Shown here piece after piece: positions 1,467 to 50,035 of a stretch of DNA of 64,000 nucleotides. The stretch spans positions 744,001-808,000 of the forward strand of contig OY253677.1 of NCBI GenBank assembly GCA_958009085.1. The letters run 5' to 3'. This stretch comes from Protoeuglena noctilucae. Taxonomy: Eukaryota. Within the stretch, counting starts at the first letter, position 1, and the number at the start of each line of letters is the position of its first letter. The notes beneath the pieces were generated by a model. That model did no database searches. It had not been told where the DNA came from and saw only the letters and a program-made list of their open reading frames with translations. A program made the position numbers and the translations under genes.

Positions 1467-3014
1467 ATGGATGTCGCTGCGGGACGCGTGTTCGAGGAGG
1501 CAGGACCGTCGCAAGGTGGGGCGGTGCCCTCAGCTCTGCAGACAGCCGTCAACGAATTGGGCGGCGCCCCCCGCGCACGTGGGCCTCGGGAAGGGCGGGA
1601 GTGCACAGTGATCGCTTCTGTGTCATAAATGAAAAGCGGCGTGCCCTTCCGTCTGGTTGTTGACCCTCTGGCGGCCGCACGCGGACGCCCGACTGTTCGC
1701 TTCCTGTTTGCAGAGGCCAGGGCGACCAGGGCCACCGCGGGCGTCTGCGGTGAGGGAACGGAGCAGCAGCCGACTTGTCGTGCCGCTGCTGCGCTCCGCC
1801 GCGGCCATCGGCAGCTCGCTGAGCCGCTGGGAGGTCGCCGTCGCGCCCGCAGTGTCTGGTACCAGCTTCGCCATCCTCCGGCTCGGCCAGCGATGTCCGC
1901 CGCCGCAGGACAGTCCCATATCCTCGGGTCAGGCCCGGGGCTCGTCGGGGTAAGCCACTCGCGTCTCACAGCGTCGGTTTTCAGATCCGAATTTGCGGTG
2001 CGGCACAGCATGCCGGCCTTCCCCCCGCGCAGGAGGCAGGCCGAGAGAGGCGGTGGCAGTGGAACGCCCGTCCGACGCCTGCACGTCTCCCTGAAACAGC
2101 TCATCCTCGCCAACCTCATTGAGCCCGGCCCCAGCGCCGTGGAGCTCCGCTACAAGGGCATGGCGTTCCCAGCCAGTCTCGAAAGAGACGGGAAGATCTC
2201 TTTCGAGGGCTCCAGTTTCGCTACCGCGAGCGCTTTCTCCATCCACGTGATCAGGTAGCTTAGGGGACCCAAGCTCACCGACCAGCGTGGCGCACAGCTT
2301 GTGGCATCCACCCGATGCCCATTTGCCCCGCCACACCCTCCGCAGGCGCTTCGAGCCTATCAAGCCGCGAGACGACGGGTGGAAGAGCGTATATCACAAG
2401 GGCAAGCAGCTGGACCACTATAAGCGGATCTTTGTCGGGTCTGGCGGGGCCCAGTGAGTGCGCGGATCCCATGCAAACATGTGGGATGAGTACTCTGGAG
2501 AGGCTCGAGACTGTTGGGCAAGCAGGCATGTCCATCGTGGGACGATGAAAGCAGTGAACGCAAGCGTTGGCGCAGGAAGGGCGAGGAGGCGACGGGCGGC
2601 ACGGCGCGGCGGGGGCGGCAGGCGCGGGCGAGCCAGGCGACGACGGCGCCCGAGGGATCGGCGAGGGGTCCGCAGCGAGGTCGAGAGGCCATCGCGCGGC
2701 CAGGCAGTGCGAGGCAGTCTTCGTCGAGCGGCGAAGAGGGCGACAAGTGGGTGCAGTGTGGTGAGGACGGCTCTGTGGTCGGGACGGCCGGTGCACACGC
2801 CCGTTGGTCGCGGGATGTTTGGGGGCCGTTGATGAGCTGGACTGACCAAACGCCATCGCTCTTCAACCCCGCAGATCGCTGCAAGCAGTGGCGCATCGTC
2901 CCCGACGCGCACTGGCCCCAAATTGAGAGTGCCGGGGACGCTGCCTGGTTCTGCGAGAGCGCGACGTGGGACGTGCGCACTACGCAGCCCAACACTCCGC
3001 CGTGCACCGAGTGA
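1467..3014 (+). CDS. RAMA-domain plus CW-type zinc finger protein (spliced; start uncertain)
   Basis: RAMA-like VSLKQLILANLIEPG..ELRYKG..ASLERDGKISFEG..FATASAF..DDGWKSVYHKGKQLDHYK. CW finger KWVQC/DRCKQWR..WFC..W..C ends at TGA 3014. Confidence 0.75.
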
Positions 3015-16765: not shown

Positions 16766-17455
16766 CGGTCACTGCAGACACACCAGCAGCGCCCAGGGTC
16801 GCCGGCCGGGGCTGCAGCGAGGTCGAGTGATAGCCGCAACATCGTACGAGTCACAGCACACGATCGCGGGACCCCCAATCGCCACCACCGCGGCGCCGGA
16901 CCAGCCAATGCCCACTGCCCTGCAGTACACAGCTTGCCTAGCCCGCTGGGCCTGCATCCGAGGCCAGGCTCGCATGCAAATCCTACCATGCCCTCGCACA
17001 CGTCGCGCTAAACTCGCTGCGCTCAACCATCCCCATCCGCGCGCAAACTGCGGGTCCCACTCTCTCGCAACGCACCGCCCCTCCCGGACGGCGCGCGGGC
17101 CATTCCCGCTGCCGCGCGAGCCTCCGAGGCCGACCGTCGCGACACACCGCATCGACTACTCCCTCACCGCTCGCCTTCCGATGCCGCTGCCGTCGAAGGC
17201 TGCTGCTGCCTCGTTGCTGCCTCGTGGCGCGATGCGCGGTCTCCGGCCCGATGCGACGCGATCTGGCCCGCGATGCCGATGTTCATGCGGCTCCCGGAGG
17301 TGAGGATAAGCCCGAGAGATCACCTGCAGCGCCCGTCAGCCTGACTGGCGACGCCAGGAGCGGGGCCAAGTGTGTCAGGCATCTTCTGCTCACACGCTCA
17401 AGCTCCGCAGCGGGGTGCGATGGCCTGGATGCGAGCCAAACAATCTGCGGAAGTC
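16766..17455. repeat. About 0.7-kb upstream segment duplicated at 49100-49795
   Basis: Long near-identical stretches, e.g. GTGAGGATAAGCCCGAGAGATCACCTGCAGCGCCCGTCAGCCTGACTGGCGACGCCAGGAGC in both places. Confidence 0.9.
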
Positions 17456-17692
17456 ATCTGTAACGCAGCACCGCCCGCCCTTGCCAGGTTTGCAACGCAG
17501 CCATAGCACGTCGCCACGTGCGGAGGGCGGTGTGGGTCGACGTCCACGTCACACGTCCACACTCACAGCCTTGTCACTTCTTCAAGGCGGCGGCAGTCTC
17601 GCGCGTGTATGCTACGGGCCGCAAGGCCCAGCACGCGAGGGTCAAGGTCGGGGTCACACGCCCCCCTCCGTTCCCCGCCTACTGTCACTCGC

Positions 17693-19896
<2,204 letters not shown>

Positions 19897-20287
19897 GTTG
19901 GCACTGCGACGGCGGCGAGGCGTGGGGCCGGGTGGGCGGCGTGGGGAGGCGCGGCGACGCCCCCGACCAGATCCCGAGCCTAGGAGCCGCCCCGCGGGCG
20001 ATTGGAGGTCTCCCGCGATGTATCTAACGCAAACATGCTCGCCGGCTGCCCCAAAGGCGCGGGGGGGTGCGCCTGGGAGAAACCGAGGGCGCCGGCTGGT
20101 AGTTGGGCCCAACGAGCCACTCACCGGGGGGGCTTGACGGTCGATGTGGGTCGGCGTCGACAAGGGCTGTTTTTAGCACCACGTGGCAGCGGCGGGACGG
20201 ATGAGCCGGGCGGCGAGCGCGAAAAACGGGTGCCAGGCCCTCCCGGTGCCGGCGACACGCAGCATCCGCAATCTTCAAATCACGCGA

Positions 20288-23200
20288 CTATGCGATGCCC
20301 AGTCCCGCAGCCACCTCCCGCGTGATCTGCTGGCATGCCGCGGCGGGGCTGGGCGTGTCGAAGATGCCGCTGACGACCGCCACGCCGACCGCCCCCGCCT
20401 TCATGCACGGCTCGATGTTCCCCGGCTTGATGCCGCCGATGGCCACGACCGGCAGCGGCGACATCGCGCAGATCTTCTCGAGCCGGGCGAGCCCCAGGTC
20501 GACGTAATCCTTCTTGGTGGTCGTAGGGTACACCGCCCCGGCCCCGATGTAGTCCGCGCCCGCGTCGAACGCCGCCTGCACCTGGTCGGGAGTCTTCGTG
20601 GACACGCCGAGGATGCGGTCGGGTCCGATGATGCGCCGGACGTCCTCTGCGGGGATGTCGGACTGCCCAACGTGCACGCCGTCCGCTCCCACCGCCAGGC
20701 ACACATCCACGCGATCGTTGATGACCAGAGGCACGCCGTACTGCCGACAGAGCGCCAGGGCCTCCCGCGCCGTCGCCACGAACGCCCCCGCGTCCGTCTC
20801 CTTCTCCCGCAACTGCACGATCGTGGCCCCTCCCTCGATAGCCTGCCGCACGGCCTCCAGCATCGTCCGCCCCTGCCGCGCGTTGCAGTCGGGGTCCGTC
20901 ACGGCGTACACGCGGAGGTAGTTCGGGCCGCGCTTCAGGTCCCGCACCCACTCCCACCACCTGCGGGCGTGCACCAGGGTGGCAGTGCTGTCGCTCCCCC
21001 ATACCTGCCATCACCCATGCCAGGCCCCAGCCGTGGGTCTGCCCCATTCCAAGATATCATGTAACGACTACACGCGCCCTGCCACCAGCTTGGCAGGCAT
21101 CGTCATCCATGCCAAAGAAGAGAGACCCCAATGCACGCAGCCACTCCGCATCGCCCATCGCGCGCCGCGCTCACCTCCCCTCGGCCCAGCAGTGCGTCGC
21201 GTACGCGTGGTTCATGGGACGTTGACTGCCCGACCCGATCGCCAGCCCCACGGATGACCGAATGGCGCCCTGCACATACTTGCGCGCCAGCTGCACCGCC
21301 GTGCGTTTGCCGCACTCCATCGACAGGTGGGCCGCCACGGCGCTCGCCAACGTGCACCCCGTCCCGTGCGTGTTTGTCGCTTGGATCCACGGCCCGCGCA
21401 TCGCCACGGGACGCTCGCCGTCAAAGAGCACATCGACAGCCTCTTCGGGGTCCACCCCGCTCTTGTTGAGGTGACCGCCCTTAATGACCACGCACTTGGC
21501 ACCCATGGCGTGGATGTCACGCGCGGCGGCGATCATGTCCTCCTCCGTTGTGATCTGCCGGCCGTCCCCGAGGATCGTCTCTGCTTCGGGGATGTTGGGC
21601 GTCACGACTTCGGCTATGGGGAACAGGCGCTTCACGATCGCGTCCACCACGCCCGCCGTCGCCAGGGGTTCGCCGCTGCGGTTGCGATAAGGCGTATGGG
21701 GGTCAGGGATAAGCATTAGTGCTACTGCTGGAAGAGGCAACGGTTAATAGTACTATCGACCATCCGTCAATACTACCAAGTCTGGCTAACCAGCAGCAAC
21801 CCTGACCCCTCGACTCGCCTGATAGGCAAGAGAAATGCAGCTAGGTCACAGACACGCAGATAGATAGATAGACACACGCAGTTGGCCCCCCACATGTCAT
21901 CGTCAACTCGCCTGGTGGCGACGAGTACTGGGTCCACCACCAGCCTCGGTGCGTTAGGCCCCAGTCCCTCCAACGCATCCGCCACCGCCTCCACAATGTC
22001 CCTGCTGGCCAGCATGCCCGTCTTGACGCACCCAGCGCCGATGTCGTCCAAACACGACGCCATCTGCATGCGCACGAACGTTGCGTCCAGGGGGCACACG
22101 CCCTGCACGCCCTGGGTGTTCTGCGGGTGCCAGGGACGCAGGGAGAGTCAAGATAACATGCCTTTCTTGTATAGGTACCATACCATCCAATCGCACCCCA
22201 CCCCGATCCCTCGATGCAGTCACACCCCGTCGCACCCCACCCCACCCCCATCAAATCCGTCGCGGCCCTGACCACCACCCTCCCCACCTGCGCCGTCGCG
22301 GCCGTGAGAGCCGTCATCGAGAAGACCCCCAATGCTTCACATGTCTTGATGTCAGCCTGGATGCCCGCACCGCCCCCCGAGTCCGATCCAGCAATGATCA
22401 GCACCCGAGGGACGTCAGACGGGGTCGGTCGGAAGGGCGTCGGCGGACCGGTCTGGCCCTTGGCCTGGATAGACGCGGCACGCGCCCCGGCAAACACCCG
22501 AGGCGCCCCGTGCCCCCCGCCGCCCCCGCCCGCACCCCATCCCAAGCTCTCCAGGACATCCTCCCATGACGCTGCCGTGAAGACCGTTTTCGCGTCTGCC
22601 GCCTCAGCGTCCGCACCGGCGCCGGAGCGGACAGCGGGTGGCAGCGGCGCGACGTCCGCCCCCGCCGCCGCCGCCAGCCCCTGCACCTTGGGACTGCCCC
22701 CCATCAAAACGGCCTTCTGGCACGCCAGCATCGCCAGAAGGTCCGTGGCGGAGTCGCCGACGAAGGCGGCCGACGCGAGGCGGGGCCCCAGGGCGGCCTG
22801 GACTGCCCGGCGTTTGTCGACGGCCGAGTTGTATCGTAGCTCGATGCGACCAGTCGCGGTGCCGTCGGGCGCAAACTCGAGCTCATTGGCGTAGACGGCG
22901 ACCGCGTGCGGGTCGAGCGTCGGGGTGTCGACGGGCGCGGCGGGGATGCCCTGCGCCTGCAGCACCGCACAGACCAGCGTGGCAGAGAAGTTGATTGACA
23001 CTGCGTGGGGGGGAGAGACACGAGGATTGAGACTTGAGCAGAGTGCTGTTGACGAGCATTGTAAGAGAAGATGGAAAGGTGTTTACAAGGGCCAGTCAGC
23101 GCTGCTGTGTGCGCAGCTGTGACGGGGCAGAGAGGCGCACCTACGGCGACGGTGCAGCCGCTGTCGAGCAGGGCGCGGAGGGCGCGCGCCGCGCCGGGCC

Positions 23201-24012
23201 GGAGCGCAACGGCGTCGGGGGCGCGCTGCTGCAGGAAGGTGCGGGTGATGCCCGCCAGGACCCCGCTGTCAGAAACGGCCCGGGCCATCCGTGCGTCGAA
23301 CGCGCCATGGCGCTCATACCAGTCCTCCACCGCGTCCCGGCCGTCCCCGGCGCGAGGCGCGGGGTTCGCTTCCGCGAACGCGCGATACTCCTCCGCGAAA
23401 CGCGACGCCACCTGGGACCAGAGGGCCTCCTGCCGGGCACGGGCCTCGGTCCCGGCACGCTTCTCCAGGCACTCGGCTGCGGGCAGGGGACGCGGTCGCT
23501 CGGCCCACCGCTGCGGGGTCTATTTGTGGCTATCTTCGACAGCGCGATGCGCGCGGAAGGAGGCCCATCGCACCTGTGAGGCGCGCTAACACGTCCGTGG
23601 TGTCGCCCGCCGTAACCGTGTCGTCGAAATCCACAACGAACGCGTCCGTGCCGGCCCACGCGAGACCCAGCAGGTGCTGCGCTCCAAACGCAGTGAAGGA
23701 CTCGGATATCGTCGGCATCGGGGGCCTCCGGTCGACAAACTCGGCCGGGAGACCGCAGCTGGGGGCCCCACGCACGCTAGAGGCGAATCCCGACCGCAGT
23801 CGGCCGCGGACAAGCGCTTCTGCTGATAACGCGACACGGTATGGGCTTTTACGCGCCGCAGACGCTGGGAGGGCGCGGACAGCGCGCGCGATGGCCGGCT
23901 GTGCAGTTCCCCCGCGACCCTCACCCAGGCGACCCCGCAGCCACCGCGCTTGCGCCGGACGGCAAGATCCGAATACGGAGCTCAGATCAGAGCACAGGTG
24001 TCGGCCCATCAT
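20288..24012 (-). CDS. TH1: Fusion of TH2-like HAD phosphatase, HMP-P kinase (ThiD) and thiamine-phosphate synthase (ThiE); start at 24012 or 23718
   Basis: [37 protein letters not shown]. Thi[46 protein letters not shown]. Thi[36 protein letters not shown]. Confidence 0.9.
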
Positions 24013-24311
24013 CGATCCCGCGAGGGTCTGCTCTGTCGCACAGACCCAGCGTGCCACGGGAAGCGCGGGAAGAGCGATCCAGCCGTCCCCACGCGCAGGG
24101 CGACATGACGCTGGCGAAGGATGCGTTGGAGCCCGTGAACAGGGATCAAGCGTTAGTCAGCCCGGTGACACTGCTGGAACGCTTTAGCCACGCCCCTCTC
24201 CAACGGCACCCCCTCCCACCGCGAGCTAAGAAAGTAGCGGCCTCTGTCTCCAGCTGCTCGGCGGGGTGGCTCGCAAACGCCTATGGCGGGCCTGGCCGAC
24301 CATCGGGCGGG

Positions 24312-27300
24312 ATGTGGGAGAAGGCGTGGTCTTCGTGGATTTTATGGGCGGTGGTCGCCCTCGCAGTCCTACTTGCGTGGTGAGTGAACTGACGGGGAGA
24401 GCGTGGAGCGTTTTCGCTCGCTGGCGCGGCTCCGCTGCTGCTCGCTTCTGTTGCGCCCCCCCGCTTTGATTTCGGGTCCTCGCGGCGCTGCCGGCCACCT
24501 TGCCGGCATGTTTACGGATTTGATATCGTGTTCGTGCCTCCGTAACGAGGAGATGTAAGCTGTTACGACCCGGAGAGGTCTAGCAAGTGCGGGACTCCTC
24601 TACGCCGAAGAATCCGCCGGGAACTCGACATTGACCAGCACTGCTTTGTGCTCGGATGTTATGTTTTTCTCCTTCGACACGCCGCGCGTGTCCTGGCCCG
24701 CTCTGGCCGCGTCCCCGCTGTCGTACGACGCGCGAAGACCCGCATGCAACTTATGTCCGCTCCGGATGACGTCCTTCCGGGCGCGCCTTGGGCTGGATCA
24801 CGGCACCTGACCTCGAACGTCCCATCGCCGACGCAGGGCGACCGGGCCGTTGGACGCCCTGGCCCAGGCAGCGCTGTGCCGGGCCCTGGCCTTCGCCAAC
24901 GTCCGTGTCCGGCGTTGCCGCGTGCGCATACTTCGCGGAACGATAGTATTACAGGCGAGGGAGGCTCGCTGGCGGCTCACGGCTGCGAAGGGCGTCGCCG
25001 GGGAGGCGGACGCCTGCGTGCAATGCAAGGCAAGCGGGCCATCTCGGAACGCCGCCCGCCGCGCCCCTCGCAGTGTCTGGAGGTCGATCCGCTCTGGCTC
25101 GATGGTCTGGACTTGCCGGTCCTCACGCGCGAGCTCTGCGTGGATGAGGTGAACCTCAGCGTCGTCCCCGGCCTCGCGGGCGGCCCCCTCCCGCTCGCCG
25201 TGCGCGTGCGCGTCAGCGGGGCGCGGTGGCTCTGCGTCACGCGCAAATTCCCCACCGCGCGCGGCATGGCCGGCAGGGAGCGGCTGGACAGGGAGCTGCA
25301 CACGTCCATCCGGTGCGCGCCCCAGCACAAAGCGCAGCCGCCGCGATCGCGTCGCCGCCCTCGCGCGCCGCGCGTCTGCGATGATAATTGAATACTCATG
25401 ATTTCGATTCCCGCGATCGGATCGCCGCAGGAGTCGGAAGCTCGTCGACACGGAGGCGCTGCTATGGGACGAGCACTGGCGCGAGCGGTCGCCTCTGCGC
25501 AAGCTCCTGCGCTTCCTAATGCGCCAGTCGACGTACTACGCGCTCAGCGCTGTGGGGATCGAGATCGCGGACGTGGCCGTGGGCGTGCGGCTGGCCAGCG
25601 AGGGCGGGGAGGGGGCTGCGTTGGGTCACGACGATGGGGCGATGCGGGAGGCGGCGAGCGTTGGGGCCGCGGACGATATCTGGTGAGCGAATGTCGCGAA
25701 GTAGACTGATAGCGATACTCCTAAAGTAAGACGGACTCGCTAACACGCTTACACGCTGGGCAGGCCTTGGTAGTGCTGAGCGTGGTTGTTGCTCCTGTAG
25801 TGGATCGGTCCACCCACTCGCTTGTCTCTCATCGGCGCTCCGCGTGCCTCCGCCTTCGCAGGGGCAGCGCGATCCTGGTGCAGATGGGCGCGCTGAGCGT
25901 GTCCCGATCCCGCGGCAGCGCCCACGGCGTCCTGTCCCTATCGGTGGTGCTGAAGAACTTCGGTATTTCCGCGTTTTGCCCCTTCAGCTGGTCTCCGAGG
26001 GTCACGCAGCGGCCCAGCACACGCCGCCCATCATGGCAAGGCATCGGGACCGGGGCACACGGAAGCCCTGCGTCCGTCGTGCCCGTGCCTCTGGCAGACC
26101 CGACGCTGCCAGTCTTGCTGCCAGTGTTGCGGGGCGTGCGCGACAGCGCGGCCGAGGGCACGCCGGCGGGGCTGCTGCCGGGCGCGGGGAGGGCAATGGG
26201 GGTGGCGCAGCTGGGGGGGTATACCCACGACGTGATGAGGGGGGCGGGGGTGGACGACGGGGGTGGTATGGGGGTAGCCAAGGGGCGGGAGTGGGGTAGT
26301 GGGAGTCGCGGGGTGACGGGGGAGATGGGTGCGACGGGGGTGGGGGTGCGGAGTGGGGGGAGGGAGCGTGTGGGGGCGCGGGGTGCGGGGGCGTGGGTTG
26401 GGTGGGAGGAGTGCGTGGCGAGGGTGAGTGGCGGTGGTGGTGATGGTGGTGTTGATTGTTGAGTTTGTGGTGGGGCAGAGTGTCGATGGGATGATGCTGA
26501 TTGTCTTGCTACCTTTTGTAACACCCTCAATATGATACGTCACATCATTGCTTGATTAACATTACCTTTCCCCTCTTCCCTCTCACCCCTTAGTGGTCAT
26601 CGGGGTCGACCGTCGTCCCCCTCTTAAAGCGGTGGGGCGCCAAGGCTGAGCTGGAGTGGGGGGTGGCGAGCGCGTCGCACGACAAAGCACGGCCCCTCTA
26701 CCGGGCCACCATTGAACCCCACGCCGTGCTGCTGACGGGTGAGGGAGGGAGTGGGGGTGTGGGTGTGGGTGTGGGTGCCGGGGGGGGGTGGGTGTGGGGG
26801 CGTGGGTGCAGGTAGCAGTGGGGGTGTGTGTCAATCTCTTTACCACATTTCCATGTCAATCATCGCTAACAATCAATAGACCACTCTTGAACCCCTCACT
26901 CGCCCTCACTCACCCTCACCTTAACCCCCCACCCCCCCCGCAGTCAACCAGTCCTCCGCCCGCGTCTCCCTGGCCCTCGCCGGCGCCATTTTGGAATATT
27001 TCAAATACCAGAGATACCGGCAGGTCCGCCCGCAGCTCCCCGTGACCCGCGCCCCGCAGCAGTGGTGGGCGCACGCGATATGGTGCACGCGGCGGGAGCG
27101 CCACGTGGCGACGCTGCACTTCCGCGCGCCCACGGGCGGCCCGGGCGGGCCGGGGCGAGGTTCAAACAACGTAGATTCAAACATGGGGCAGCCGCAAGAC
27201 GGCGCGGGGAGCGAGGCGAGCCTGGGGGCGGTGACGGCGCTGGTGCGGCGGCGGCGGGAGTACAGGGCCGTTTACTTGCGCGTGAAACGGCTGGCGGCGT

Positions 27301-30300
27301 GGGGGTGGCTGCCGGGGCTGCACTGGCGGGCGGCGGTGGCGCAGCGGTCGTTGCGAGCGATTGAGGACGGCATGACGCTTCACGACGTGATGCTGTTTCG
27401 GTGGTGGGCGTGGGCGGTGACGCCGCCGTGGTGGCGGGGGGTGGTGGCTGGGGTGGCGGGGGCGGTGGGGGTGCGGGGGGCGGAGGGGGTGCGTCTGTGG
27501 AAAACACAGGAGGAGATGGCGGGTGAGTGGAGGTTGCGGTGATGCAATTACAATTGATAGTTGTAATTGTAGTAAGTATTGGTGGCGATAGATGTAGTGG
27601 AGGGGGTGCGTCTGGAAAACACAGGAGGAGATGGCGGGATGGGGGAATTGGTGTTAGTACAAGTAGTAATATCGATCAATTGATGGTGATATAGATGTGA
27701 CGTGAACATGCCAGCCCACACAGTTTCATGATATTACCATATACCACTTCATAATCGCAGCCAAGATGGACAAGCTGCGTGCGCTGATGCCCACATACTA
27801 ACCATGCTTATATTAATAATCATTACATTCCTACACTTCATAATCGCAGCCAAGATGGACGAGCTGCGTGCGCTGATGTCCCTGGACGGCGCCGCCCCCC
27901 GCCCCGACGACCGCCCCTCCCGCCTCCACCTCTCCCTCGCGTGCCCCAAGGTCAGCGTGGCGCTGGACTTGTCGCAGAACGCGAGAATGGGGGGGGCACA
28001 CCTCGGCGCGACCGCCACTGCCACGCCCACGGTGAGGCCCGACGATCGTGTTATTGTTGCGATCATTATTTATTGTTAATGTAAATGTCTACTATTTGTG
28101 TAATATTTTATTGATTTATTAACTTATCAAGATTTATTATCGTAACAAAATTATAAAATCTATATAATTATATAATTATATAATTAATATATAATTATAT
28201 ATAATTATACATACGCCTCATCTCGATAATCCCCCGCAGTCATCCCCTAGCAAGATGCTGGAGGTGGCGCTTCACGCGCTGTCGCTGATCATTACTATTA
28301 ACATTACTTATATCCCATAAACTGTCATTGTAACCATCATATCGCCATCCCCCCGCAGTCTCCCCCCAGCGAGGTGCTGGAGGTGGCCCTGCACGCCCTG
28401 TCGCTTTCCCTGGTAATGGGTCCGGAGGCATACGCAGCCAGGCACGCCAAAGTGGGGGCAGGGACGGCCGCGTCGCTGTTCGACATGAGGGGCAACGCGG
28501 GGGGGCAGGCGAGGAGCGGGGGGGGGCGGTAGCGGGGTGGGGGTTGCGATGGCAATTGATGTGGGGTGGGTTGCAATGGGCAATCGATGTGGGGTGGGGG
28601 TTGCGATGAGACACATGATAACTGGTGGACGAGCGTGTATTGATATACATATGAATTGACTTATTGTATTAATCTATTCACCAACTCACTCTCCCTCCCC
28701 CCTCCCCACCCCCAGCCCTTATCGGACCCCCCCCTCGGCACCTCGCCCGTCTCTGTGAACGTGGCATGCGAGGCTCTGAGGGCCACCCTCAAGTCGACAA
28801 AGGGGCAGGGGCAATCGCAGGGGCAGGGGCAGCACGTGGCCTGCAACGACGTGGGTGAGGATTTGATTTATATATGTATAAATATGAAGTGTAGATGTGG
28901 GTCATATCTATTATTTGGGGATAGTCACAGTCGCAGCACGTGGCCTGCAACGACGTGGGTGAGGGATTGTTTGTTTATTGATGTGTACAATGTAACAATG
29001 TAGATGGGGGCAGGCAGGCGGGGGCAGTGGGGTTAGTCACAGTGGCAACATGCAGTGTGAACTACCAGCAATTTGTGAGGGGCGGGTGTGGGAATAGGAA
29101 ATGTCAATAGTGCCAATAAGCAGTAATTATGATAAATAAATTGTTAATCTTTAATGAACCCCCCCTTTCCCCACCCCCAGTCGTCCCCCCCCCCGCCTCC
29201 ACCCCCGGCGCCCCCCACTCATTTGAATTTTTAAATAATAAATTAAGTAACAACCCCCTCTCTCCCCCCCCCCACACCCAGTCGTCTCNNNNNNNNNNNN
29301 NNNNNNNNNNNNNNNNNNNNNNNNNNNNNNNNNNNNNNNNNNNNNNNNNNNNNNNNNNNNNNNNNNNNNNNNNNNNNNNNNNNNNNNNNNNNNNNNNNNN
29401 NNNNNNNNNNNNNNNNNNNNNNNNNNNNNNNNNNNNNNNNNNNNNNNNNNNNNNNNNNNNNNNNNNNNNNNNNNNNNNNNNNNNNNNNAGACTGTTGGGA
29501 TGTGCACAACTTAATTGCACCCCAACACCCTCACCCCACCACCCTTACCAGCACCCTCGCCCATCCTCCCCCTCACCTTCACTGCCACCCTCACCCTCAC
29601 CCACTCTCACTCCAACCCTCACCCTCCCTTACCCACTCTCACCCAAACCCCCACCACCCCTCACCCTCATCCCCCCCCTCCCCCCCCCGCAGACGCCAGC
29701 GTGTCCCAGGGCCCCCGCTCTCGCCCCCCCGATTCGATCCATTACGCACCATCCGACACCGACGTCCCAAGACCCCACACTAACAACACCACCAATGCCA
29801 CTCGCACATCCAAGCCCACGTCCGGCCGGGCGTCGCACGGCGTGGGTCGTGACCATCACCAAGCTCACCATCCGCTCCATCGGGGCCAAACGTGCTGCGG
29901 ATGCTGACAACGCCGGCGGTGGTACCGTCGGTATGACATCAACAGCAACAGCGGCAGCAACAGGGGCATCAGCAGCGACTGGACCCACAGCTGGGGCCAC
30001 CGCCGGGGCTGCGGGGGTGGTGGCGCGCGTGGCGGGAGTACGAGGACGCGCTGGACCGGGGCGCGCGGGGGTGGATGGGCCGGCGCCCGGGCGCGGTGGC
30101 GTTTGACGGCCGGGAGGTGTCCTTTCGCATCTCCGTCTCCCTCGGCCAGGTCAAACCGGGGGGCAGGCTCACCCGGCACGTGCACGTGGTGGACGAAACG
30201 CAGGTTCTGGCGTCCGTAAGGTGGTGCCAGGAGCCAGAAACCCTCGCGGCACGGTTCCGCACCGCCTACAACGTGGGACTGGCCGCGTCGTGCGTCAGCC

Positions 30301-33300
30301 TCCGCCTGTCCCCTTTCGTCGAGAGCCACATACGCGCACTCTTGCAAGACCTATCGCCCTCCGTGCCCATGGGTGCTGGCACAGCCAGGGACACCCCCAC
30401 TTCGCACCCGCACCCCAACTTCACCCGTCGCACCGCCCCACGCTCGCCTGCCCGCCATGCCACCGCCGACGCCCCGCACTCCCCCGCGCGCCCCCCCCGG
30501 CGCCGTGCTGGGCCTGCAGCTGTCGTTGCAGTCCCTCAACGTCATGTTCTGCAGCCACGAGGGCGAGACTGAGGCGGACATCGCGTCGTTGGGGCTCAGG
30601 CATTTAGCCATGTCGGTCGCGTGGGAGCTGGGGGATCTCGATACGAGGCTATCGGTGGAGCAGATTGCGTTAGTGGATCACACGGCGAGGGCTGGGGAAG
30701 CAGGGAGGGCGGGGCGGGCTACGGGGAGTGGGCGGTGGGACCGGGGCCACCCCCAAGTGGTGCAGGTGGGCCCCACGCGCAGGCACCTGGGAGGTCCCGG
30801 GATCGAATCCGCGCGGGGACTCGCGGGGCCGCGCGCGCGTCGCGCCTTTTGCGCGTGGCGGGCGGCGACGGCGGCGGCGCGGCCGGCGGGGGCGGCGGGG
30901 GCGGAGGGGTGGTCGCGCATCCGTTCACTCCGTCGAACACCTCACCCCCATCCCCTCCGGCCAAGTGTACCTGGCGCTAGTGGCGCCCAGGGTGGGTTTG
31001 CCCTCTCTGGCAGTGGACGTGTCGTACCTGGGTCTTTACCTGGACTCTGCCTTCCCTAGGAGGGTGCTGGACAGCGCAGTGGCGTTTGCGGAGGGCACGC
31101 GTGCGATTTTGGAGACGTGGGGACCACCGGGGCAGGAGGGGGGCGGGGTGGGGGCGGGGGCGGGGGGTTATGCGGGCAGTGCGGGGGAGGAGGGGGGTGG
31201 GGTGGGAGAGGAGGAGTCGGTGGAGGGGGAGGGGGTGCAGGAGGTGGGGGGAGTGAGCGTGGATGAGTGCGTGTGGAAGGTGAGGGGTTTGGGTAGGGGG
31301 AATGGTGGTTGGTTGGGTGGTGATGATGTTATTCTGTGTGGATAAGAGTGATAGTTGATTTTTATGCAAGTGGTTTGGTAAGTAAATTGATGAGACGCTG
31401 GCAATACAATACTCACACCTATCTCTGTATGGCATATCCACATTAAAACACCTATGGTGCTTATCTCCATTCCACCCATCTCCATCACACCCCCACCCAC
31501 CTCCCCCCTCCCCAGGCCCTCCCCGGCTGGCTCCCCCTCGACCCTATCTGTCATCTCTCAGTCTCTTTTGCCTGTCTCTATTCTACCTCTCACCATCACA
31601 CCAATCCCACCTACCTCTCCCCACCTCTCCCCCTCCCCAGGCCCTGCCCGGCTGGCTGCCCCCCGACCTCCGCCCAGCTGACCTCCGCCCCACCCGCACC
31701 GGCCCAGCCCCGCGCGCCATCTCGCGCCCCCCCGGCCGCGGATCGGATGTGCAGATCCACGTCGCTTGCATGCGTGTGGTGCTGGCTGTGAGGAGGACGG
31801 AGCTGGCGCGCGTGGTGGCCATGGACGTCGACGGGTCGGTCGAGGAGGTGAGAGACGTGTATGTATCGTCTACTACTATGTATATGTATTTGTATATGTT
31901 TGTGTATATGTATATGTACCACCACCACCACAACACCACCCCACCCCCTCACACACCCACCCACACCCACACCCCACCACCCCCCAACCCCCAAACCCCA
32001 CCCCCCCCAGGTCTTCACCCCCCTGACCCCCGAGGCCGCCAATTTCCTGGCATTTGGCGTCGCGTCCCCCCGCGCCACCGTCCGCCGAGACATGACCGCC
32101 GCCCTTCACGTCGCCGACCTCACCGTGCTGGACAGACTCGCGCCCTCCCGATCCCCGTTCGCCGCCACCCTGCGCGGCACCGACGGTGGGCCGTGTTCCC
32201 TTGACTTAGCTCTCTACAACGCAGCGACACGGCTGGACTGGCGTAGGTACACGGCGGGGCCGGACGTGACCCCTCGCCCCGTCCCCCGCTCCCGGTCAGG
32301 CAGGAGGAACGCCTCTCTGGTCCCTGCGTTTTTGGCATCCACGATGCCCGCCGGGCCCAGGCCGGGGCACAAGGCGGCGGCGTCACACGACTGGGCCAAT
32401 GCACCCACCATTACCAACACCACCAGCATCAACACCACAGCTACTGTCAACCCGAACAGCATCAACCCCAGCACCGCCGGTATCAACCCCAACGCTGTGG
32501 TCAGCCCCCGCACCCCCACCCGCCCCCGCCACGCACCCCACGCCGACCATACCCCGCTCCTCTCGCCCACCTCCACGCGCCCCACGCCCACCCCCGCACA
32601 CGCACACGCGTCCGGCCTGTCGCACACTCTCTACGCCACCCCCGCCGGCATCAGCAGCGGCATCGGCATCGGCCCCAGCCACCCTCTCTCTCCCACGTTC
32701 GCTTCCCCAGACGCCCCTGCCTCCTCCGCCCTCGGCCCCGCGTCAGGCCCCGGCCTGACTCAGCCGGGGCCCTTACCCCGCGGCCCCGCGGCAGATCGTG
32801 CTGCGGCCGCGAGGTACTGGGAGGACGTGAGACGTGCCGCGGAGGACCCGCGGATCGTGCTGCGGGTGTCGATGCAGAGCGTCCGGTACGCCCTGCTGTT
32901 CCGGTTCTTGTGGGACGCGATGTTCTACGGTTTTGACATGGCGTCTGCGGTGGGGGCGGCGGTGGCGCGGGTTCGGGAGGCGGCGGGAGTGGGGGCGGGC
33001 GATGGGAAGGTGGGAGCGAGGGAGCCGGGTGGGGCGTGGGAGGGCAGCGAGGGCGGCGGCGTGGCGTCCAGCGCAGGGAGCGAGGCGGGGCGCGCGACGC
33101 AGCGGGGCCGGGGGGCGATGATCGAGGTATCGGTGACAGATGGGTGGGTCGACTTGCCGCGCAACAGCGTGTCGGGACAGGCGCTGGTAGCGCGGTTCGA
33201 CCGGGCCACCCTGACGCTCCCGGCGTGCCCGGACGCGCTGATCTGTCTGCGGCAGACGCTGCGGGCGGCCGCGGTGGGGGGCTACTGGGGCCCGAACGAT

Positions 33301-36300
33301 GCGAGCCTTCAGGAGGCGTGGCTTGGGGGGACTAAGATGCATGGGCGGTTCGAGGCGCCCCTCACCCACCCCGCGCGCGGCCGCACGGCGCGCTTCGCGC
33401 CCTCCTCTCGGTCCCAGTTTCTGGCTTCTGTGCTGGAGAGGCTGGTGGACACGTCGGGCGCTTTCTTGGGGACCTTCCGGGGTTCCCCCACCGCATTGCC
33501 CCAACCTGAGGGCTCGCCCCGGTCATCCCTGGCGATCCGCGTCACGGGCGCGAGGGTGTTCCAGACCATGTGCGACGTCAACCCGGTGTCCAGATTCGAT
33601 CCCAAACCCCACCCGGCGACGTCGCCCTTTGCGCACGCACCCTCGGCCCGCAGCAGCCCCACTCCGGGACTCGCCCTCGCCCGCGACCCGTCTCGCGTCC
33701 TCACGCGCGCCGGGCCGCCCGCTATGGGCCTCCACGCCCACGCGTCCGCCACCCCCTCGACACGCAATCTGGCGACGGTGCCAGAGTCGGCCGTGCCAGA
33801 GACGGACCTGTTCGAGGACGCGGTGTCAGGGGGGTCAGACGACGACAGCCCCGTGCGGCCGAGCGGGCGGGGCACGACAAGCCACGCGCACAGCCCCCCT
33901 GGGTACTTCGACCCTTGTCGCGCCCCCCACACCGCACCACCACCCCACGCCGGCCCAGGCAGGGGCTACCTCCCCCCCCGCAGCGGCCCCTTCGCCGCGC
34001 CGGGTCTCTTCTGGCGCCACATCGGCGGCGGGTCGGAGATTCTGCTCTCTTTGGACCTCGGCCCTTCGCGCGACTTTCTGGCGTGGCGCTTCCAGGCGTT
34101 CTGGCCGTCCGCCAGTCTGGTGTTTGGCGAGGCGCAGTACGACCTGCTGATGGGATTCTGCATGGAGAATCTGTTCGAGGAGGCGACGTTTTCTGACGAA
34201 GCCCTGGGGTACCTCCCCACCCAGCCGGGCTACCTCTACGGTCGTAGGGTGGGGTCCCCGTGGCCCCCCGCCCCCGATGCCCCCTCGCAGCTGGGCCTGC
34301 AGGAAGCGGCGCTGTTCAAACGATGGGAGGTGGCCGTGGATGTGCCGAGGATCGAGGTCTTAGTCGAGACGCCGGCTGAAAAGGAGCCGGTGGGGGACGG
34401 GCACCTATATGGCAGCGGCAAGGCACCCCTGGCGATACTACGAGTAGCCGATCTGCGCGTGGGAGTGCACACGTACCTTCCCGATAACGCCCGGCGCGTG
34501 AGGGTGGGCGCGGGAGGCCTGGCGTTGCACGACGTGAGATGGGGGCCGGCGGGACCGTCCGACCCCGCCCTCCTCGTCCCCCCGCCCCCGCGCTTCGCCA
34601 CCAACGCCGCGCGGCTCTGGGAGCGGTGCCTGGCGCTCTCCCGCGGCCACGCGCCCTCCATCGCCCGGTCGGCGCGTGACGATGCAACCACGACTGTCGC
34701 CCCCGACTGTCGCTTCCTCTTAGACCTCACCATGCAGCGACAGGGCACGGCTCCGGGCCCCATGGTGTTAGAGATCGCCACGCACGGGGCAGCGATCTTC
34801 TGGCCGTACCTGACGGACCTGCAGTTGATATGGGACATCGTCGAGTGCACGACAGCCTTCTGGTTCCAGCCATTTGTGTCGCCGTTCGCGCCCCGCCCGG
34901 GCCCGGACCCGTGGATTAACGTCAACGTGGTCATGGCGCAGTGCAGTATCGCGGTGCCCCTGCCGCCCGCGCCCTCGCTGCGCACGCGTGCCGACCCGCC
35001 CCCCCACGCCACCGCCCACCTCCTTCTCTCCACCGACGCACTGCGCGTGCTCTACGCTGCCGGGGGCGACGGCGAGGCCAAGCTCCGCATCGACCTGCAG
35101 CGGCTGGCCGGCACCGCGCGGGACCTGCCCGGGCAGAGCGCGTCGCAAGCGTCGTCGGCATCGCTGGGCCCCATCTTGCGCCCGGTCCGGGGCTTTGTGG
35201 AGGTCGACTGGCGGCGCCCCAAGGACAAGCGCATGCACACTAGCACGGCGCTGACCGCGGCGTTCTCGGAGATCGCCCTATCACCCGCCTTTGCGTACCT
35301 CGAGCCCCTGGCCGCCCTCGCCACCTCACTCTCAGCAGAGCTGCGGGCCAGCGCGGGTGCCGACGAGGGCGCGCGCGACGCCGTGAGCGGGGGCCGCCGC
35401 GCAGAGGCCGGGGATCGCGGTTCAGATGTCCTGGGCCTGTCCAGCGACGAGGGGCTGGCGCACGCGATGGGACCGACGCCGTCATCGCGCGTCGACACCC
35501 CCGCCGACCGCTCCTTCCCCGCCGCCACGCCCGCCTCGTCCGCGCAGACGGCGCGCGAGACGCCCCGCGCGGCGTCGGACGTCTCCGCGCGCGGACTGGG
35601 CCCCGAGGCTTCGTGGGGTGCACCGAGGATGGCGGTGGTGCGGGGGGGACCATCGGCGTTGACGGCGAGAGCATCGGGGGCGGAGGGCGACTCCGGCACT
35701 GACTGGGACGACGACGGGCGTGTGGGGGAGTCGGGGGCGTCGCCTGGCGGGGCGCTGTGGGGTGCGGAGACGTCGAGCGTGCATGCGGGGGGCGGGGTGG
35801 CACGGGCGGTGCGGCGGAGGGAGAGCCGCCGGCGGCTGGAGGACGCGGCGTTGCAGATGGTGGACGCGGCGCGAGAGCAGCGGGAGCTGCAGGCGCAGGT
35901 GCAGGCCCGCTTCCGACCCTCAGCGCTGTCGGTGTCTGCGTTACTAGAGGGCGTGGTGGTGACGCTGGTGGATGACAGATACGGTCACCCGATTGAGTCA
36001 CTGCGAGTGTCCCTGCGCGAGGCCAGCGGCTACGCGAGCCTGGAGAGGCCGCAGGAGGGCGCGCCCCCGGACGTGCATTGGCATGTGGCGGCTTCGATCG
36101 ACGTCCGGTTCCTCAACTCAGCCATCGACCAGATGGAGCATCTGATCGAGCCGTGGTCGGTCGAGGCCGAGTCGCGAGCGATGCTGGGTAACACCCACGT
36201 GTTGGTGAACAGCGACAGGGCATTGCGTGCGGTGGCGTCGCCCGCCTGCCTGCGGTCGCTGGGGGACGCCCTCGCCTTCGCGCGAGCGGCCCAGGCGGCC

Positions 36301-39300
36301 ATGCAGCGCTTCGCGGGGTGCGGCGCGATCGCCCAGGACGACGCGGGAGGCAGCCGCAGGGGCCTGGCACCCGCCACCAGCACCCCAGGGTCGGTGTCCC
36401 GAGGTTCGATGCGCATCCGCCCCCCCGCACCCGCACCTGCCTGGGCACCCCTCGCCGGGCAGGTTTTATACCGCGTGCGCAACCGCACCGGCGGGCGCAT
36501 CTCCGTTTGGGCCAACACCCACAGCCACAGCCACGGCAACACCCACACGCATGGCCACGCTCACAGCCACTACGGTCACGGCCACATGCAGGGTGCCAGC
36601 CCCGCGCGCCCCGGTCCCTCGGCGTTCGTGGACATCCCCGACGGCGCCGAGGTGCCGCTGCGACTGGAGCCGGCGCCCCGATTGGTGCGAATGGCCGAGT
36701 CTCAACTGGACGTCCTTGCTCGGACCGTCACGGTGCAACTGGAGGGCAACATGCCGCCCTTAGAAGACGTGATCGTCGATAAGGTGGGCACGTTCGCTTA
36801 CGAACTCCGCGCGCCGCATGGATTAGAAGATGCGTCAGTCCCGGTCATCGTGGAGGTGGGGCTCGAGAACCGAACCCGCACCGTCACGCTCCGGTCGACC
36901 CTGACGCTGCGAAACGACACGGCGCTCGGGCTCTCCTTCCGGGTTTACTTAGCCGCGGCCGACCGCGGCGGATCGCGGGTGGTGGACCTTCCCAGGCCGG
37001 GGGAGTGGCTGCCGCCGGGGGGCGAATGCCACATCCCCGTCGCACCCATGCGCTCCTGCCGGGTGCTGGTGGGCGCGGAAGGCCGCGAGCGGGCCGAAAA
37101 GGACGTGATTAACATCAATCCGCGGCAGGAGGACGTCTCGGACCAGCAGGGACTGATCGCGTGTCCCCCCCGCCCGGGTGACACGAGCACCGTCATATTA
37201 TCTCTGCAAGCCTCCACGACGATTCTCACCACGCTCAGCCCCACCTCGGCGCTCAAACGCGTCCCCTGCCACCGCCTGTCGTTGCGCCCGGTCGTGCGAA
37301 TCACTAACCTTATGCCTGGCGCGGCGCGGCTATCCTTGCTAGACCCCAAATCCGGGGCCAGCGAGGCGTGGGAGCTGCGGCCGGGTGAGACGGTGGACTC
37401 ATACGCGTTCGACTTGCACCACAAGCTGATGCTTTCCATGGCCTACGGCCACCTTCGCCTCGATCGTGCTTTGGCCCACCAGCCCTTGTCGGACGTGCTG
37501 GATAAGGACCTGTTGAGTCTCATGGAGGACGCGCGGCGGCAGCGGAGGCGCGAGGTGGCGCGGGTGACGCCTTTGGAGCTGACCAGAGCCGGCGCGGGGG
37601 CGGGGGCGGGCGCGGGCGCGGTGTGGCTGGCCCTGCACCAGCGATCGTCGCTTTCAGCGCATTGGAAGGAGATGAGCGTGTTAGCGGCTCACTGGCTGGT
37701 CAACGAGTCGGGGTTCGACCTGCGATGGCGCGACAAGCCGACGGTCCCCACCGTCGCGACCACGTCGGGCGCATGGGACCACACCGGGGCAGCGAAGCGC
37801 CGTCGCCCCGCAGAGCCCCCCGTTCCGATCGGCTCCCTGCGCGGCATCGTGCAGCTGAGCCTTATGTGGGGCACGCAGTGGTCGCGCGGCATTAACCTCA
37901 ATCAGGTCGGCACCAAGAGCCTGGTATCTGTGGTTTCCAGCCAGCCGCTGCGGTGGGAGGGGGAGGTGCGGGAGCAGGAGGCCAAAGAGAGGGACCGGGT
38001 GCGGAGGGCGCCCGGGGCACGGCCGGGGAGTGGGGGGCAGAGTCGGGATTTTGGGGCAGAGAACCCGGCGGGGATTGAAGATGCGACTGATAAGGGCTGG
38101 GTGGTGTACAACGCGTGGAGCTGGGAGGCCGAGGCGCTCGCGCAGGCGGCGGCGAGGGACTCTGGCGCACGGCGGGGGATCCCCCGGTGGTACCTGAGTC
38201 AGGGCGACCTGCCAGAGTGGCGCGACGCGAAAGGGCGCGTGGTGCACAAGCTGGTGGGCCTGATGAAGAGCCGGGAGCAGCGGGAGGCGCGGCCCAGACT
38301 GGACCTGGCGGTGGACATCTCGCTCGCCCCGGGGCCCTTCAGCGAGACGCGCGTTCTGACGCTCACTCCGCGCTACACCCTGCACAACCGGTGCGGGCAC
38401 GACGTGGAGGTCACGCAGCGGGGGCTGCGGATGCGCGGGCGCCCAGTGGTGTGCCGGGTGCCCGCGGGCGCCAGTCTCCCGTTTCACTGGCCCGACGCCG
38501 CTGGGAAGAAGGAGCTGTGCGTGCGGCTGACCGAGGGCGACTCCCTCTTCTCCGGCTCTTTCCGCATCGATCGCGCGGAGGACGTAGCATTGCGGCTGCC
38601 CACCAAGGGCGGCTCTGACGCGGTGATCTTACACGTCGTGATGCGCCAGGACCGTGCGGCGCTGTCGGCCACGTTCTTCACCGACAAGCCCCCGCCGTAT
38701 CGCATCGAGAACCGATGCCGGGAGGCGCGGGCTATGTTCCGGCAGGCGGTCAAAGGAGCGCGGGCGAGCGACCCCTGGCGTGCGCTGGAGGGGGTGCGCA
38801 AGCGGGGCGGGGTGGCCCATGAGGACTACGCATGGGACGAGCCACTGGATGTGCGGCGGCTGGCGGTGCGGGTGGAGCGCGAGCGATTTCAGGAGATGGG
38901 CGCCGCGCTGCACGAGTACCCTTTAGACGACATCAAAGCACATCCCGCAATCGTGCTGGAGAGGAGGCGGGAGGGGCCGGAGGGGGCGGGGGCGTGGGGC
39001 GCGGTGCGGGAGGCGGCGGTGGCGCGGCTGCCGCTGGAGCTGCGGGGGATGCGGAGGGCGGGGAACCTGACGAGCATCGAGCAGGTGTACGTGGCGGTGT
39101 ATGCGGATGGGCCCACGCGTGTGCTGGCGTTCAGTGACAGCCGGGACATCCTGATGCAGCTGAGGAACGAGGAACAGGAGCTGGCGTTCCAGGTGGGAGA
39201 TGAGAGCTGGGGGGGTGCTGTGTTGGGTGGGGGTTGGTTGGGGGTTAGGGTGTATGGGTGAAGGGGTTCATACGGTGTGCATGGGCTTGTTCAAGCAGCC

Positions 39301-47920: not shown

Positions 47921-49099
47921 TCAGCAGCCGCTCTGGGATCCCGACCCACACCCCGACACGGTGCACCCGCTGTGCGCGAGGGTGCTGATGTACAGGCCGT
48001 ACTGCTTGCAGTCACGAATGACCACGTTGCGCACCTCCGCATGCCCGCCCTCCTCACAAAGCACGCCGTGACATTCTTTGGACCCCGTGATGCGCCCACC
48101 ATGTACAATTACCCTGCTGCCACGCCAATCGCAATCAATGCAACTCAGCTTGCAGTCTGCGATCTCTACGCCTCGCATCTCAACCTCCCCTCCATCACCG
48201 CAGCCCAGCCCAATGCCCTCCTTAGACCCCATGATGCGACCCCCCTGCATAACCACTCTGCTGCCTCGGTACTGACAGACCACGCCGTTCTGCATGCAGT
48301 CTGCCAGCTCCACCTCTATCAGCTCCACCTGCCCGCCCTCCGTGCAATGCACCCCGTCCATCCCTACAGGCCCTGTTACGCACCCTCCCTGTACCACCAC
48401 GTAGCTTCCACGGCTAAAACACCCTATCCCTGACATGGGTGCGTCTGTCACTTGCGTGTCCACCAGCGTTACATGCCCGCCCTCCCTGCAACACACCCCC
48501 GTCCCCACCACCCGCACACCCTCCAGACGCAGCTCCCCGCCCCTTCTGGCCTTTAAAGCAAACAGGGTTTCCACTTTTCGTTCCGAACTTAACATCCGCA
48601 GCGTCCCGTTGCGGATCGTTGCCATCTTGTTTGCACCTTTCACCTCCACTTCCCGTGTCAGTTCCACCTCTTGACCCCCAAGGTCCACCTCTCCACCCCT
48701 CGCCACTGCATTTGCAATCTCAGCGTCCGTCCACACCCTCACTGCCCTGCCTGCGGCTGACACCCTCACCGACCCCACCAGCCCTGCCGGCCCCGTCACT
48801 GCCGGCCCGAGAAACCCCATCGCCGCCCTCTCCGCCGCCCGCACCCTCGCCTCCACCACCGCCCACTCCAGCCGTGCGCCCCCCACCCCCGCCGTCCCCG
48901 CCGCCGCCTCCCACGCCGCCCTGCGCCGCACCTCGCTCGGCTGCCCCAGCACGTGCACCAGCGCCACCCACCGCTCCTCCGTCCCCACCTCCTCCCGCTC
49001 CCCCGCCCCACCCTCGCCATCGTGCCCCGCAACCAGCAAGTCCCTCCCCCGGCCCCCCGCGCTCCTCGCCCCGGCGCCGGCACGCCTCGCCTCGTCCAT
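47921..49099 (-). CDS. Right-handed parallel beta-helix repeat protein, copy 2 (kinase-less, intact 392 aa)
   Basis: Single ORF with three 48-aa repeats (..GG.I.GSKE..G..C..GG..E...V.I.DC....). Confidence 0.8.
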   Translation of the reverse strand: MDEARRAGAGARSAGGRGRDLLVAGHDGEGGAGEREEVGTEERWVALVHVLGQPSEVRRRAAWEAAAGTAGVGGARLEWAVVEARVRAAERAAMGFLGPAVTGPAGLVGSVRVSAAGRAVRVWTDAEIANAVARGGEVDLGGQEVELTREVEVKGANKMATIRNGTLRMLSSERKVETLFALKARRGGELRLEGVRVVGTGVCCREGGHVTLVDTQVTDAPMSGIGCFSRGSYVVVQGGCVTGPVGMDGVHCTEGGQVELIEVELADCMQNGVVCQYRGSRVVMQGGRIMGSKEGIGLGCGDGGEVEMRGVEIADCKLSCIDCDWRGSRVIVHGGRITGSKECHGVLCEEGGHAEVRNVVIRDCKQYGLYISTLAHSGCTVSGCGSGSQSGC

Positions 49100-49795: not shown

Positions 49796-50035
49796 CACAG
49801 GCCCAGCATTGCCCGGCCTTGCCAGCCTTGCAACATGGCCAATATGTATAGCACGTTGCCATGCTAAGCGAGTGGTGTGGACCCGCTTGCCCGGCCGACG
49901 TCGGCGCCGTGGGGTCGGTCGAGTGTGTGGAGAGGCGAAGCTTTTCTGGTCTGCCCTCTGGCGTCTCAGATGTCGTCTGGCATGCTTCAAAGCTCGCATG
50001 TGCTGCCGCCGCCGCTGCTGCTGCTGCTCTGCGGC

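Follow-up and report, generated by a model that had tools for sequence, protein, structure and literature searches.

Does a single gene of the alga Protoeuglena noctilucae encode three consecutive activities of thiamine (vitamin B1) synthesis, including the phosphatase that would release free thiamine from thiamine monophosphate (ThMP)? This question is raised by a minus-strand gene at 24012..20288 of a 64,000-nucleotide stretch of contig OY253677.1 (positions 744,001 to 808,000, forward strand; assembly GCA_958009085.1), which was analysed at its full length and is referred to below as the window. The predicted product carries a phosphatase domain of the HAD type, followed by the ThiD and ThiE domains. 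Comparison with known families suggests that this one polypeptide, with a TH2-type phosphatase, ThiD and ThiE, probably performs three consecutive steps of the pathway. Judged by homology, this polypeptide of a marine alga corresponds to a fused green-algal version of the land-plant pair formed by TH1 and the HAD half of TH2. Both the components and the principle of their fusion are already known, and the window protein is a divergent new example.

Structure and transcription of the fusion gene

The window has about 67% G+C and contains spliceosomal introns, and is therefore eukaryotic nuclear DNA. A gene model was built from GT-AG splice sites (one intron is GC-AG) and metatranscriptome contigs; it reads through seven exons without a stop and gives a protein of 921 or 922 residues (Table 1). 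The limits originally predicted for the gene coincide with this model, which runs from the first in-frame ATG (24012-24010) to the stop codon TAG (20290-20288), and no in-frame ATG is present upstream of 24012 before the stop at 24157. An out-of-frame ATG at 24106 (minus strand), 94 nt ahead of the main one, opens a short open reading frame (ORF) extending over the start codon. Since the RNA contigs reach only to about 24085, this upstream ATG may not be part of the mRNA.

Contigs from four metatranscriptome runs (X9 to X12) were aligned with positions 17400-24700. These are assembled contigs, not reads: their depth cannot rank the parts of a gene, and a contig alone is no proof of a single transcript. 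In three of the four runs (X10, X11 and X12), the predicted joints were found exact to the base (20960/21175, 21675/21912, 22120/22288, 23000/23141 and 23476/23574), and with a sixth joint between 23819 or 23822 and 23925, all six introns are thus seen in RNA contigs. Run X9 is unspliced and looks like DNA. A single spliced contig of 2872 nt (record 2 of X10) extends from 20260, the 3' end of the RNA contig of the gene, to beyond 23925 and spans the HAD, ThiD and ThiE domains. Intron 1 was revealed by the RNA contigs inside a stretch first modelled as exon 1. Its tandem acceptor is used at 23819 in X10 and at 23822 in X11 and X12, both in frame, and the 102-nt version of the intron adds one Ala to the presequence, which accounts for the two protein lengths. 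The GC-AG intron at 21911-21676 (minus strand) has the donor AG/GCGAGT, and its RNA joint (21675/21912) has the ends CT..GC on the plus strand.

Between positions 20336 and 23964, ten single-base differences distinguish the window from the environmental RNA and DNA contigs, namely one intronic, three synonymous and six that change an amino acid. Three of the latter affect the HAD domain or the residues immediately ahead of it (L82R, Y260F and Y280C). These differences suggest that the contigs come from a natural population related to, and not identical with, the sequenced strain.

The domain order comprises an Arg/Ser-rich presequence, the HAD phosphatase (residues 87-375), a Gly-rich linker, ThiD (422-691) and ThiE (713-914). 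Of the first 63 residues, 11 are Arg, 8 are Ser and 4 are acidic, a composition similar to that of organelle presequences, and the presequence of approximately 60-85 residues may be an organelle-targeting peptide. The linker would be flexible; its GGGGGG is encoded by a G-rich run at 22505-22545 (minus strand), at which the X11 and X12 contigs break. The Pfam family PF08543 (ThiD) is matched above its cut-off of 27 bits by exons 4 (40.4 bits), 5 and 6, which are collinear with profile positions 1-32, 33-98 and 100-242, respectively, while the cut-off of TIGR00097 (204.95) is reached by no single ThiD exon piece. ThiE, C-terminal to ThiD, lies above the thresholds of both PF02581 (cut-off 27) and TIGR00693 (cut-off 145.1).

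The original prediction had placed the passage from HAD to ThiD within one exon, and the 41-residue stretch on which it relied is indeed one open frame in the exon 23000-22288. On this exon alone, Pfam finds PF12710 (HAD) at exon residues 32-90 and PF08543 at exon residues 206-237, and neither a stop nor an acceptor nor an ATG occurs in the part that leads from the HAD core to the glycine loop of ThiD. The same prediction described the gene content correctly from the C-terminal half of the HAD domain to the start of ThiD, and missed the N-terminal half (VVDFDDTVT, exons 2-3) and the 5' intron 1. TenA (aminopyrimidine aminohydrolase), the partner of the HAD domain in land-plant TH2, was not found: PF03070 matched no exon, and no TenA was detected by Pfam on the 124 long ORFs of the window, by tblastn of the 64 kb with four TenA-bearing proteins (E<=1e-3) or by our own profile in six frames (E<=10).

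Table 1. Exons, intron 1 and domains of the fusion gene (positions in the window; a slash marks an exon-intron boundary)
Feature	Position	Strand	Remarks
Exon 1	23925..24012	-	First in-frame ATG and beginning of the Arg/Ser-rich presequence; donor GCCTGG/gtgagg; joint in RNA contigs
Intron 1	23820..23924 (105 nt) or 23823..23924 (102 nt)	-	Tandem NAGNAG acceptor tcag/cag/AAG (23819-23825)
Exon 2	23574..23819	-	Remainder of presequence and HAD N-terminus; 10-residue motif I segment with D93/D95/T97 (23631-23623)
Exon 3	23141..23476	-	Predicted HAD helical cap region (HGAFDARMA, SGVLAG); match of own HAD profile, positions 27-147, E 5e-23
Exon 4	22288..23000	-	HAD motifs II (VVSINFS), III (K286) and IV (GDSATD), Gly-rich linker and 19-residue ThiD start; single open frame
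Exon 5	21912..22120	-	Middle of ThiD; PF08543 61.4 bits; followed by the GC-AG intron
Exon 6	21175..21675	-	C-terminal part of ThiD including the GTGC motif; PF08543 141.5 bits, TIGR00097 137.8 bits
Exon 7	20288..20960	-	ThiE domain and stop codon TAG; PF02581 225.7 bits, TIGR00693 220.8 bits
HAD phosphatase domain	22546..23649	-	Exons 2-4 and two introns; own profile and alignment to plant TH2
Gly-rich linker	22545-22408	-	Exon 4
ThiD domain (hydroxymethylpyrimidine/hydroxymethylpyrimidine phosphate kinase)	21195..22407	-	Exons 4-6
ThiE domain	20917-20312	-	Exon 7

The phosphatase domain and its relatives

In an alignment with 24 relatives, all four catalytic HAD motifs are intact: motif I is VVDFDDTVT (D93, D95 and T97, in columns that are 97-98% conserved among 97 relatives), motif II has S225 in VVSINFS, motif III K286 in AVDK, and motif IV G305-D306-S307 and D310 in GDSATD. 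Conservation among the 97 relatives reaches 85% or more in 28 columns, of which the window HAD keeps 23, all catalytic ones included. Exon 4 alone scores 18.5 bits with the HAD-IB model TIGR01488 (cut-off 45), the domain being split over three exons; full-length relatives score 29.8-38.3 bits with PF12710.

The fold was examined on a relative (P0287, AF2 model) rather than on the protein of the window itself, and the core of this model has pLDDT values of 92-97 except for two ten-residue blocks (64 and 85). Its top Foldseek matches are phosphoserine phosphatases, 5'-nucleotidase III and MtnX (E 3e-6 to 7e-4; TM by target <=0.69), and the model thus points to a subfamily IB fold with a Rossmann-like core and a helical C1 cap. 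By sequence as well, the nearest solved structures are phosphoserine phosphatases (SerB; profile E 3e-6, 29.8 bits). Although SerB/PSP, cytosolic 5'-nucleotidase III and MtnX, all of subfamily IB with a C1 cap, provide the nearest solved folds to a member of the family, their sequence identity is at most 20%, and the helical cap is larger in the TH2-type domain. No solved structure of a TH2-type domain was found among the structure-search matches. In the ESM Atlas, the clusters nearest to the HAD part of Micractinium are fungal PF12710 HAD proteins (score 0.96), which is a lead only.

The link to land plants came solely from an exhaustive phmmer search, in which a Trebouxia TenA-HAD piece (P0173) was compared with 1.84 billion representatives. 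It returned 2750 proteins at E<=1e-3, many of 530-620 residues and matching end to end. Ten of these matches were looked up: one is a 'bifunctional TH2 protein' of Salix (P0190, 617 residues), another (P0193) belongs to a cluster that holds a Selaginella 'bifunctional TH2 protein, mitochondrial', and the remaining eight comprise five land-plant proteins without the TH2 name and three without an organism name. Other homologue searches, with the TenA-HAD part of Coccomyxa, gave as shorter proteins almost only exon-sized fragments, and their near relatives were seven algal proteins and no plant TH2. In blastp, the window HAD aligns with residues 324-617 of the Salix protein over 308 columns (73 bits, 24% identity), and with the Salix and Selaginella TH2 proteins at 70-73 bits over 288-308 columns (3e-15 to 4e-14 in phmmer). 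With a HAD profile built without land-plant sequences, seven TenA-HAD proteins of land plants, of which two bear the name TH2, reach 138-201 bits, in contrast to the 29.8 bits of the best solved structure.

A passage of PMC7868968 gives the order of TH2/PALE1 as targeting peptide, TenA and HAD, and a passage of PMC9544542, citing Mimura 2016, states that TH2 dephosphorylates ThMP specifically. Because of the full-length alignment to the HAD domain of TH2, the profile scores, and the known domain order and ThMP specificity of TH2, the window HAD can be assigned to the TH2 type, and ThMP phosphatase is the best-founded predicted function. The ThMP phosphatase role proposed in the original prediction is thereby strengthened. 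The window protein resembles land-plant TH2/PALE1 in its catalytic motifs and in homology along the entire HAD domain, whereas it lacks TenA, has the HAD domain fused to ThiD-ThiE, and has lost a conserved A-D-x-G segment. Plant and algal TH1 proteins, bifunctional enzymes with hydroxymethylpyrimidine phosphate kinase and ThMP synthase activities, have ThiD-ThiE in the same order (best identity 55% over 486 columns, Parachlorella), to which the window protein adds an N-terminal phosphatase domain of approximately 290 residues and the linker.

The occurrence of this architecture was surveyed with our own domain profiles (as partners only TenA, ThiD and ThiE) over 338 sequences, a biased set that had been fetched with thiamine-domain queries. 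TenA-HAD was found in 55 of them, HAD-ThiD-ThiE in 23 (the window included), TenA-HAD-ThiD-ThiE in 18, HAD-ThiD in 8, TenA-HAD-ThiD in 6 and HAD-ThiD-ThiE-TenA in 1; the HAD-ThiD and TenA-HAD-ThiD proteins are probably cut off. The three-domain form includes proteins of Micractinium conductrix, Parachlorella kessleri and Ostreobium quekettii, and the four-domain form those of Coccomyxa, Myrmecia, Raphidocelis, Gonium, Volvox, Pleodorina, Chlamydomonas incerta, Bryopsis and Tetraselmis (the last also in MMETSP transcripts). Many algal proteins were likewise recovered when exon 4 was searched among longer proteins, covering both the HAD half and the start of ThiD, and Pfam on 13 such relatives identified ThiD in 13, ThiE in 11, a HAD family in 10 and TenA in 4 (Coccomyxa, Tetraselmis, Gonium and Volvox). 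The fusion of HAD, ThiD and ThiE is therefore common in green algae, with fused forms spanning Chlorellaceae, Coccomyxa, Volvocales, Bryopsis and Tetraselmis, and the uniqueness implied by the original prediction does not hold. The TenA half of TH2 is also N-terminal in many other chlorophytes and absent from the window protein, and the four-domain arrangement reads as TH2 followed by TH1 in one chain.

The window protein and these chlorophyte proteins share the same architecture from HAD to ThiE and a conserved HAD-to-ThiD junction. The uncharacterised chlorophyte proteins have only automatic names ('thiamine phosphate synthase', 'thiamine biosynthetic bifunctional enzyme'). Identity between the window protein and algal fusions is about 50% in ThiD-ThiE. 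In trees of both the HAD domain and ThiD-ThiE, the window protein falls outside the core chlorophyte clades at an unsupported position. The protein with TenA at its C-terminus (P0039, 1416 residues, on a 74-kb contig) stands near the window protein in both trees, without support. A metagenome scan with a single-protein query yielded 38 loci, all ThiD(-ThiE) without this HAD, and nothing on synteny or close relatives.

Other fusions of thiamine enzymes, such as fungal THI20 (ThiD-TenA) and THI6 (ThiE-ThiM), have different partners and a different order and lack a phosphatase domain. In bacteria, genes for HAD ThMP phosphatases are fused to thiD or thiE, or lie in one operon with them, according to the summary of Hasnain 2016 in a passage of PMC5627462, so that the fusion principle is in print. 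The logic is the same as here, a phosphatase being joined to enzymes of thiamine synthesis in a route via free thiamine and a pyrophosphokinase, while the bacterial enzymes are described in that summary as subfamily IA, which differs from the IB-like fold predicted here. No paper on algal HAD-ThiD-ThiE or TenA-HAD-ThiD-ThiE was found in the full-text literature that was searched, which did not cover Mimura 2016, Zallot 2014 and Hasnain 2016, where it may be mentioned.

Predicted reactions and alternative readings

In the proposed sequence of reactions, ThiD would phosphorylate hydroxymethylpyrimidine phosphate (and hydroxymethylpyrimidine) to the diphosphate, ThiE would join this product with thiazole phosphate to give ThMP, and the N-terminal HAD domain would hydrolyse ThMP to free thiamine, Asp93 being the nucleophile and Asp95 the acid/base residue. 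Conversion of thiamine to the cofactor thiamine diphosphate (ThDP) would then fall to another enzyme, a thiamine pyrophosphokinase that is not encoded in the window. The assignment of the three steps is well founded by homology, because the HAD domain keeps its catalytic motifs and aligns with that of TH2; we infer the substrate of this domain, the organelle targeting and any channelling.

Several observations weigh against three consecutive steps on one chain. The substrate specificity of a HAD domain cannot be read from its sequence, and no enzymology was found for any fused algal protein. The window HAD is only about 30% identical to those of other algal fusions and 24% to that of plant TH2, and the protein occupies a long, unplaced branch in both trees. 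Five of the 28 conserved columns differ (Y138F, W228F, and C-Q-K-A in place of A-D-x-G after motif IV), and PF12710 reaches 17.7 bits (cut-off 27) on exon 4 alone, the domain being split over three exons. On the side of transcription, all RNA evidence comes from one study, the X11 and X12 contigs break in the G-rich linker (approximately 22520-22584), and the 3' contig is deeper than the 5' contig (33.9 versus 9.33 in X12). There may be a shorter ThiD-ThiE transcript from an internal transcript start; a gap in coverage of the G-rich stretch is the simpler reading of the break.

Three alternatives were weighed against these data. That the fusion is an artefact, separate HAD and TH1 genes being joined only by read-through or by contig assembly, would fit the break of two RNA contigs between the two halves and the caveat that even a contig extending over two genes need not stem from a single transcript; it is hardly credible given a junction that is one continuous frame within an exon, the X10 contig that spans everything, and the preservation of the junction in dozens of algal proteins that were predicted independently or derive from transcripts, such as the Tetraselmis MMETSP transcripts. 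The original view that the fusion is no gene-model artefact thus gains from the spliced RNA and from its conservation in many algae. It is also very unlikely that the HAD domain, inherited from an ancestral TH2-TH1 fusion, has decayed and lost its catalysis while the organism uses another phosphatase. Such decay would agree with the divergence of the window HAD, which exceeds that of every other family member in the HAD tree (end branch 1.89 versus a median of 0.52), and with the six of nine coding differences from the environmental RNA contigs that change an amino acid, whereas the four motifs and most conserved columns are kept, the frame is open across three exons without a stop or frameshift, and two of the three HAD-domain variants (Y280C and Y260F) appear, in an alignment judged by eye, to shift towards residues common in relatives.

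A different substrate is the alternative that deserves more weight, although it too seems rather improbable. In this case the fusion would be real and the HAD domain would act on another phosphate ester (hydroxymethylpyrimidine phosphate or thiazole phosphate, as a valve for salvage or overflow; ThDP or thiamine phosphates that have been damaged; or some unrelated metabolite) or serve a mainly regulatory or structural role, with no three consecutive steps. HAD phosphatases switch substrate easily. This one has diverged far from all its relatives (24-37% identity) and forms a long branch; it has lost the A-D-x-G segment, and its nearest solved folds are phosphoserine phosphatases and 5'-nucleotidase III. 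There is also a precedent in plants, where At4g29530, once proposed to be a ThMP phosphatase, was later described as a phosphoethanolamine phosphatase (the title of Tannert 2021, as listed in PMC9544542). On the other hand, the sole characterised member of this HAD family is TH2, which is ThMP-specific according to the same passage of PMC9544542 as above, and the catalytic residues are intact. Moreover, this HAD domain is paired with TenA, ThiD-ThiE or both in 106 of the 338 proteins, among which 24 have no ThiE and 14 of these no TenA either, and no further partner domain was seen with the three partner profiles that were run on this thiamine-biased set. ThMP hydrolysis, as the last of three steps on one chain, thus remains the probable function.

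The THI4 neighbour and implications for thiamine synthesis

Directly downstream of the fusion gene, on the same strand and head-to-tail, lies a gene for the thiazole synthase THI4, modelled at 20090-17567 with seven exons, an ATG at 19896 and a product of 346 residues, the last exon of which is matched by PF01946. The mRNA contigs of the two genes are approximately 170 nt apart (20260 versus 20090; the spacing of the genes is about 170-200 nt), and the poly(A) site of THI4, marked by the loose end of a T-run, is at 17567. The second intron of THI4, which lies in the coding region (19494-19290), contains a thiamine pyrophosphate (TPP) riboswitch (RF00059, 19301-19408, minus strand, 62 bits against a gathering score of 54.3), and the spliced form of this intron was seen in three RNA runs. 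No riboswitch was found in the fusion gene, Rfam giving no match at E<=1 in 19800-25000. A second GC-AG intron of the locus, again with the donor AG/GCGAGT, is present in THI4 at 18261-18456 (minus strand), its joint being confirmed by RNA. This tandem of two thiamine genes is a small pathway cluster in a eukaryote.

Other features of the window were noted in passing. The RAMA family (PF18755, 'restriction enzyme adenine methylase associated'), matched at E 2e-11 by an ORF at 1629-2255 (plus strand), is unusual in the nuclear genome of an alga. A very AT-rich, partly repetitive patch of approximately 165 nt (tataatta units) is present at 28050-28215 amid 65-70% G+C, and an apparent low-GC bin at 29290-29489 is due to an assembly gap, a run of 200 N. 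Further along, 31852-39258 (plus strand) is an apparently intron-free open frame of 2469 codons with a VPS13 adaptor-binding domain, and large ORFs with right-handed beta-helix repeats occupy 47924-52080 (minus strand), where the GC skew is strongly negative (48-54 kb).

A more far-reaching scenario, which we regard as speculative and unlikely as a whole, is that the green lineage ancestrally had a four-domain TenA-HAD-ThiD-ThiE protein that land plants later split into TH2 and TH1. A deep-branching marine alga would then have kept a three-domain form in which the ThiE site hands ThMP straight over to the phosphatase site and thiamine is released in the compartment of its synthesis, in a two-gene cluster with a riboswitch-controlled THI4. 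The site of ThMP dephosphorylation is debated in Arabidopsis: according to a passage of PMC9544542, TH1 is located in plastids and TH2 in the cytosol or mitochondria, and phosphatases of the plastid have yet to be validated. If both the ancestral fusion and the direct hand-over were true, they would settle this site in photosynthetic eukaryotes.

A specialist would find little of this very surprising, and the fused enzyme would also be a compact part for engineering thiamine production. In work on vitamin B1 in algae and the sea, ThMP dephosphorylation is drawn as the task of 'unspecific phosphatases', as in a figure legend of PMC5635689; annotating the TH2-type HAD domain would therefore correct the maps from which B1 auxotrophy is predicted. 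As a natural 'Rosetta stone', the fusion connects the TH2-type HAD domain with ThMP synthesis without recourse to Arabidopsis genetics, and it shows the green-algal phosphatase travelling together with TH1, apparently behind a single targeting peptide.

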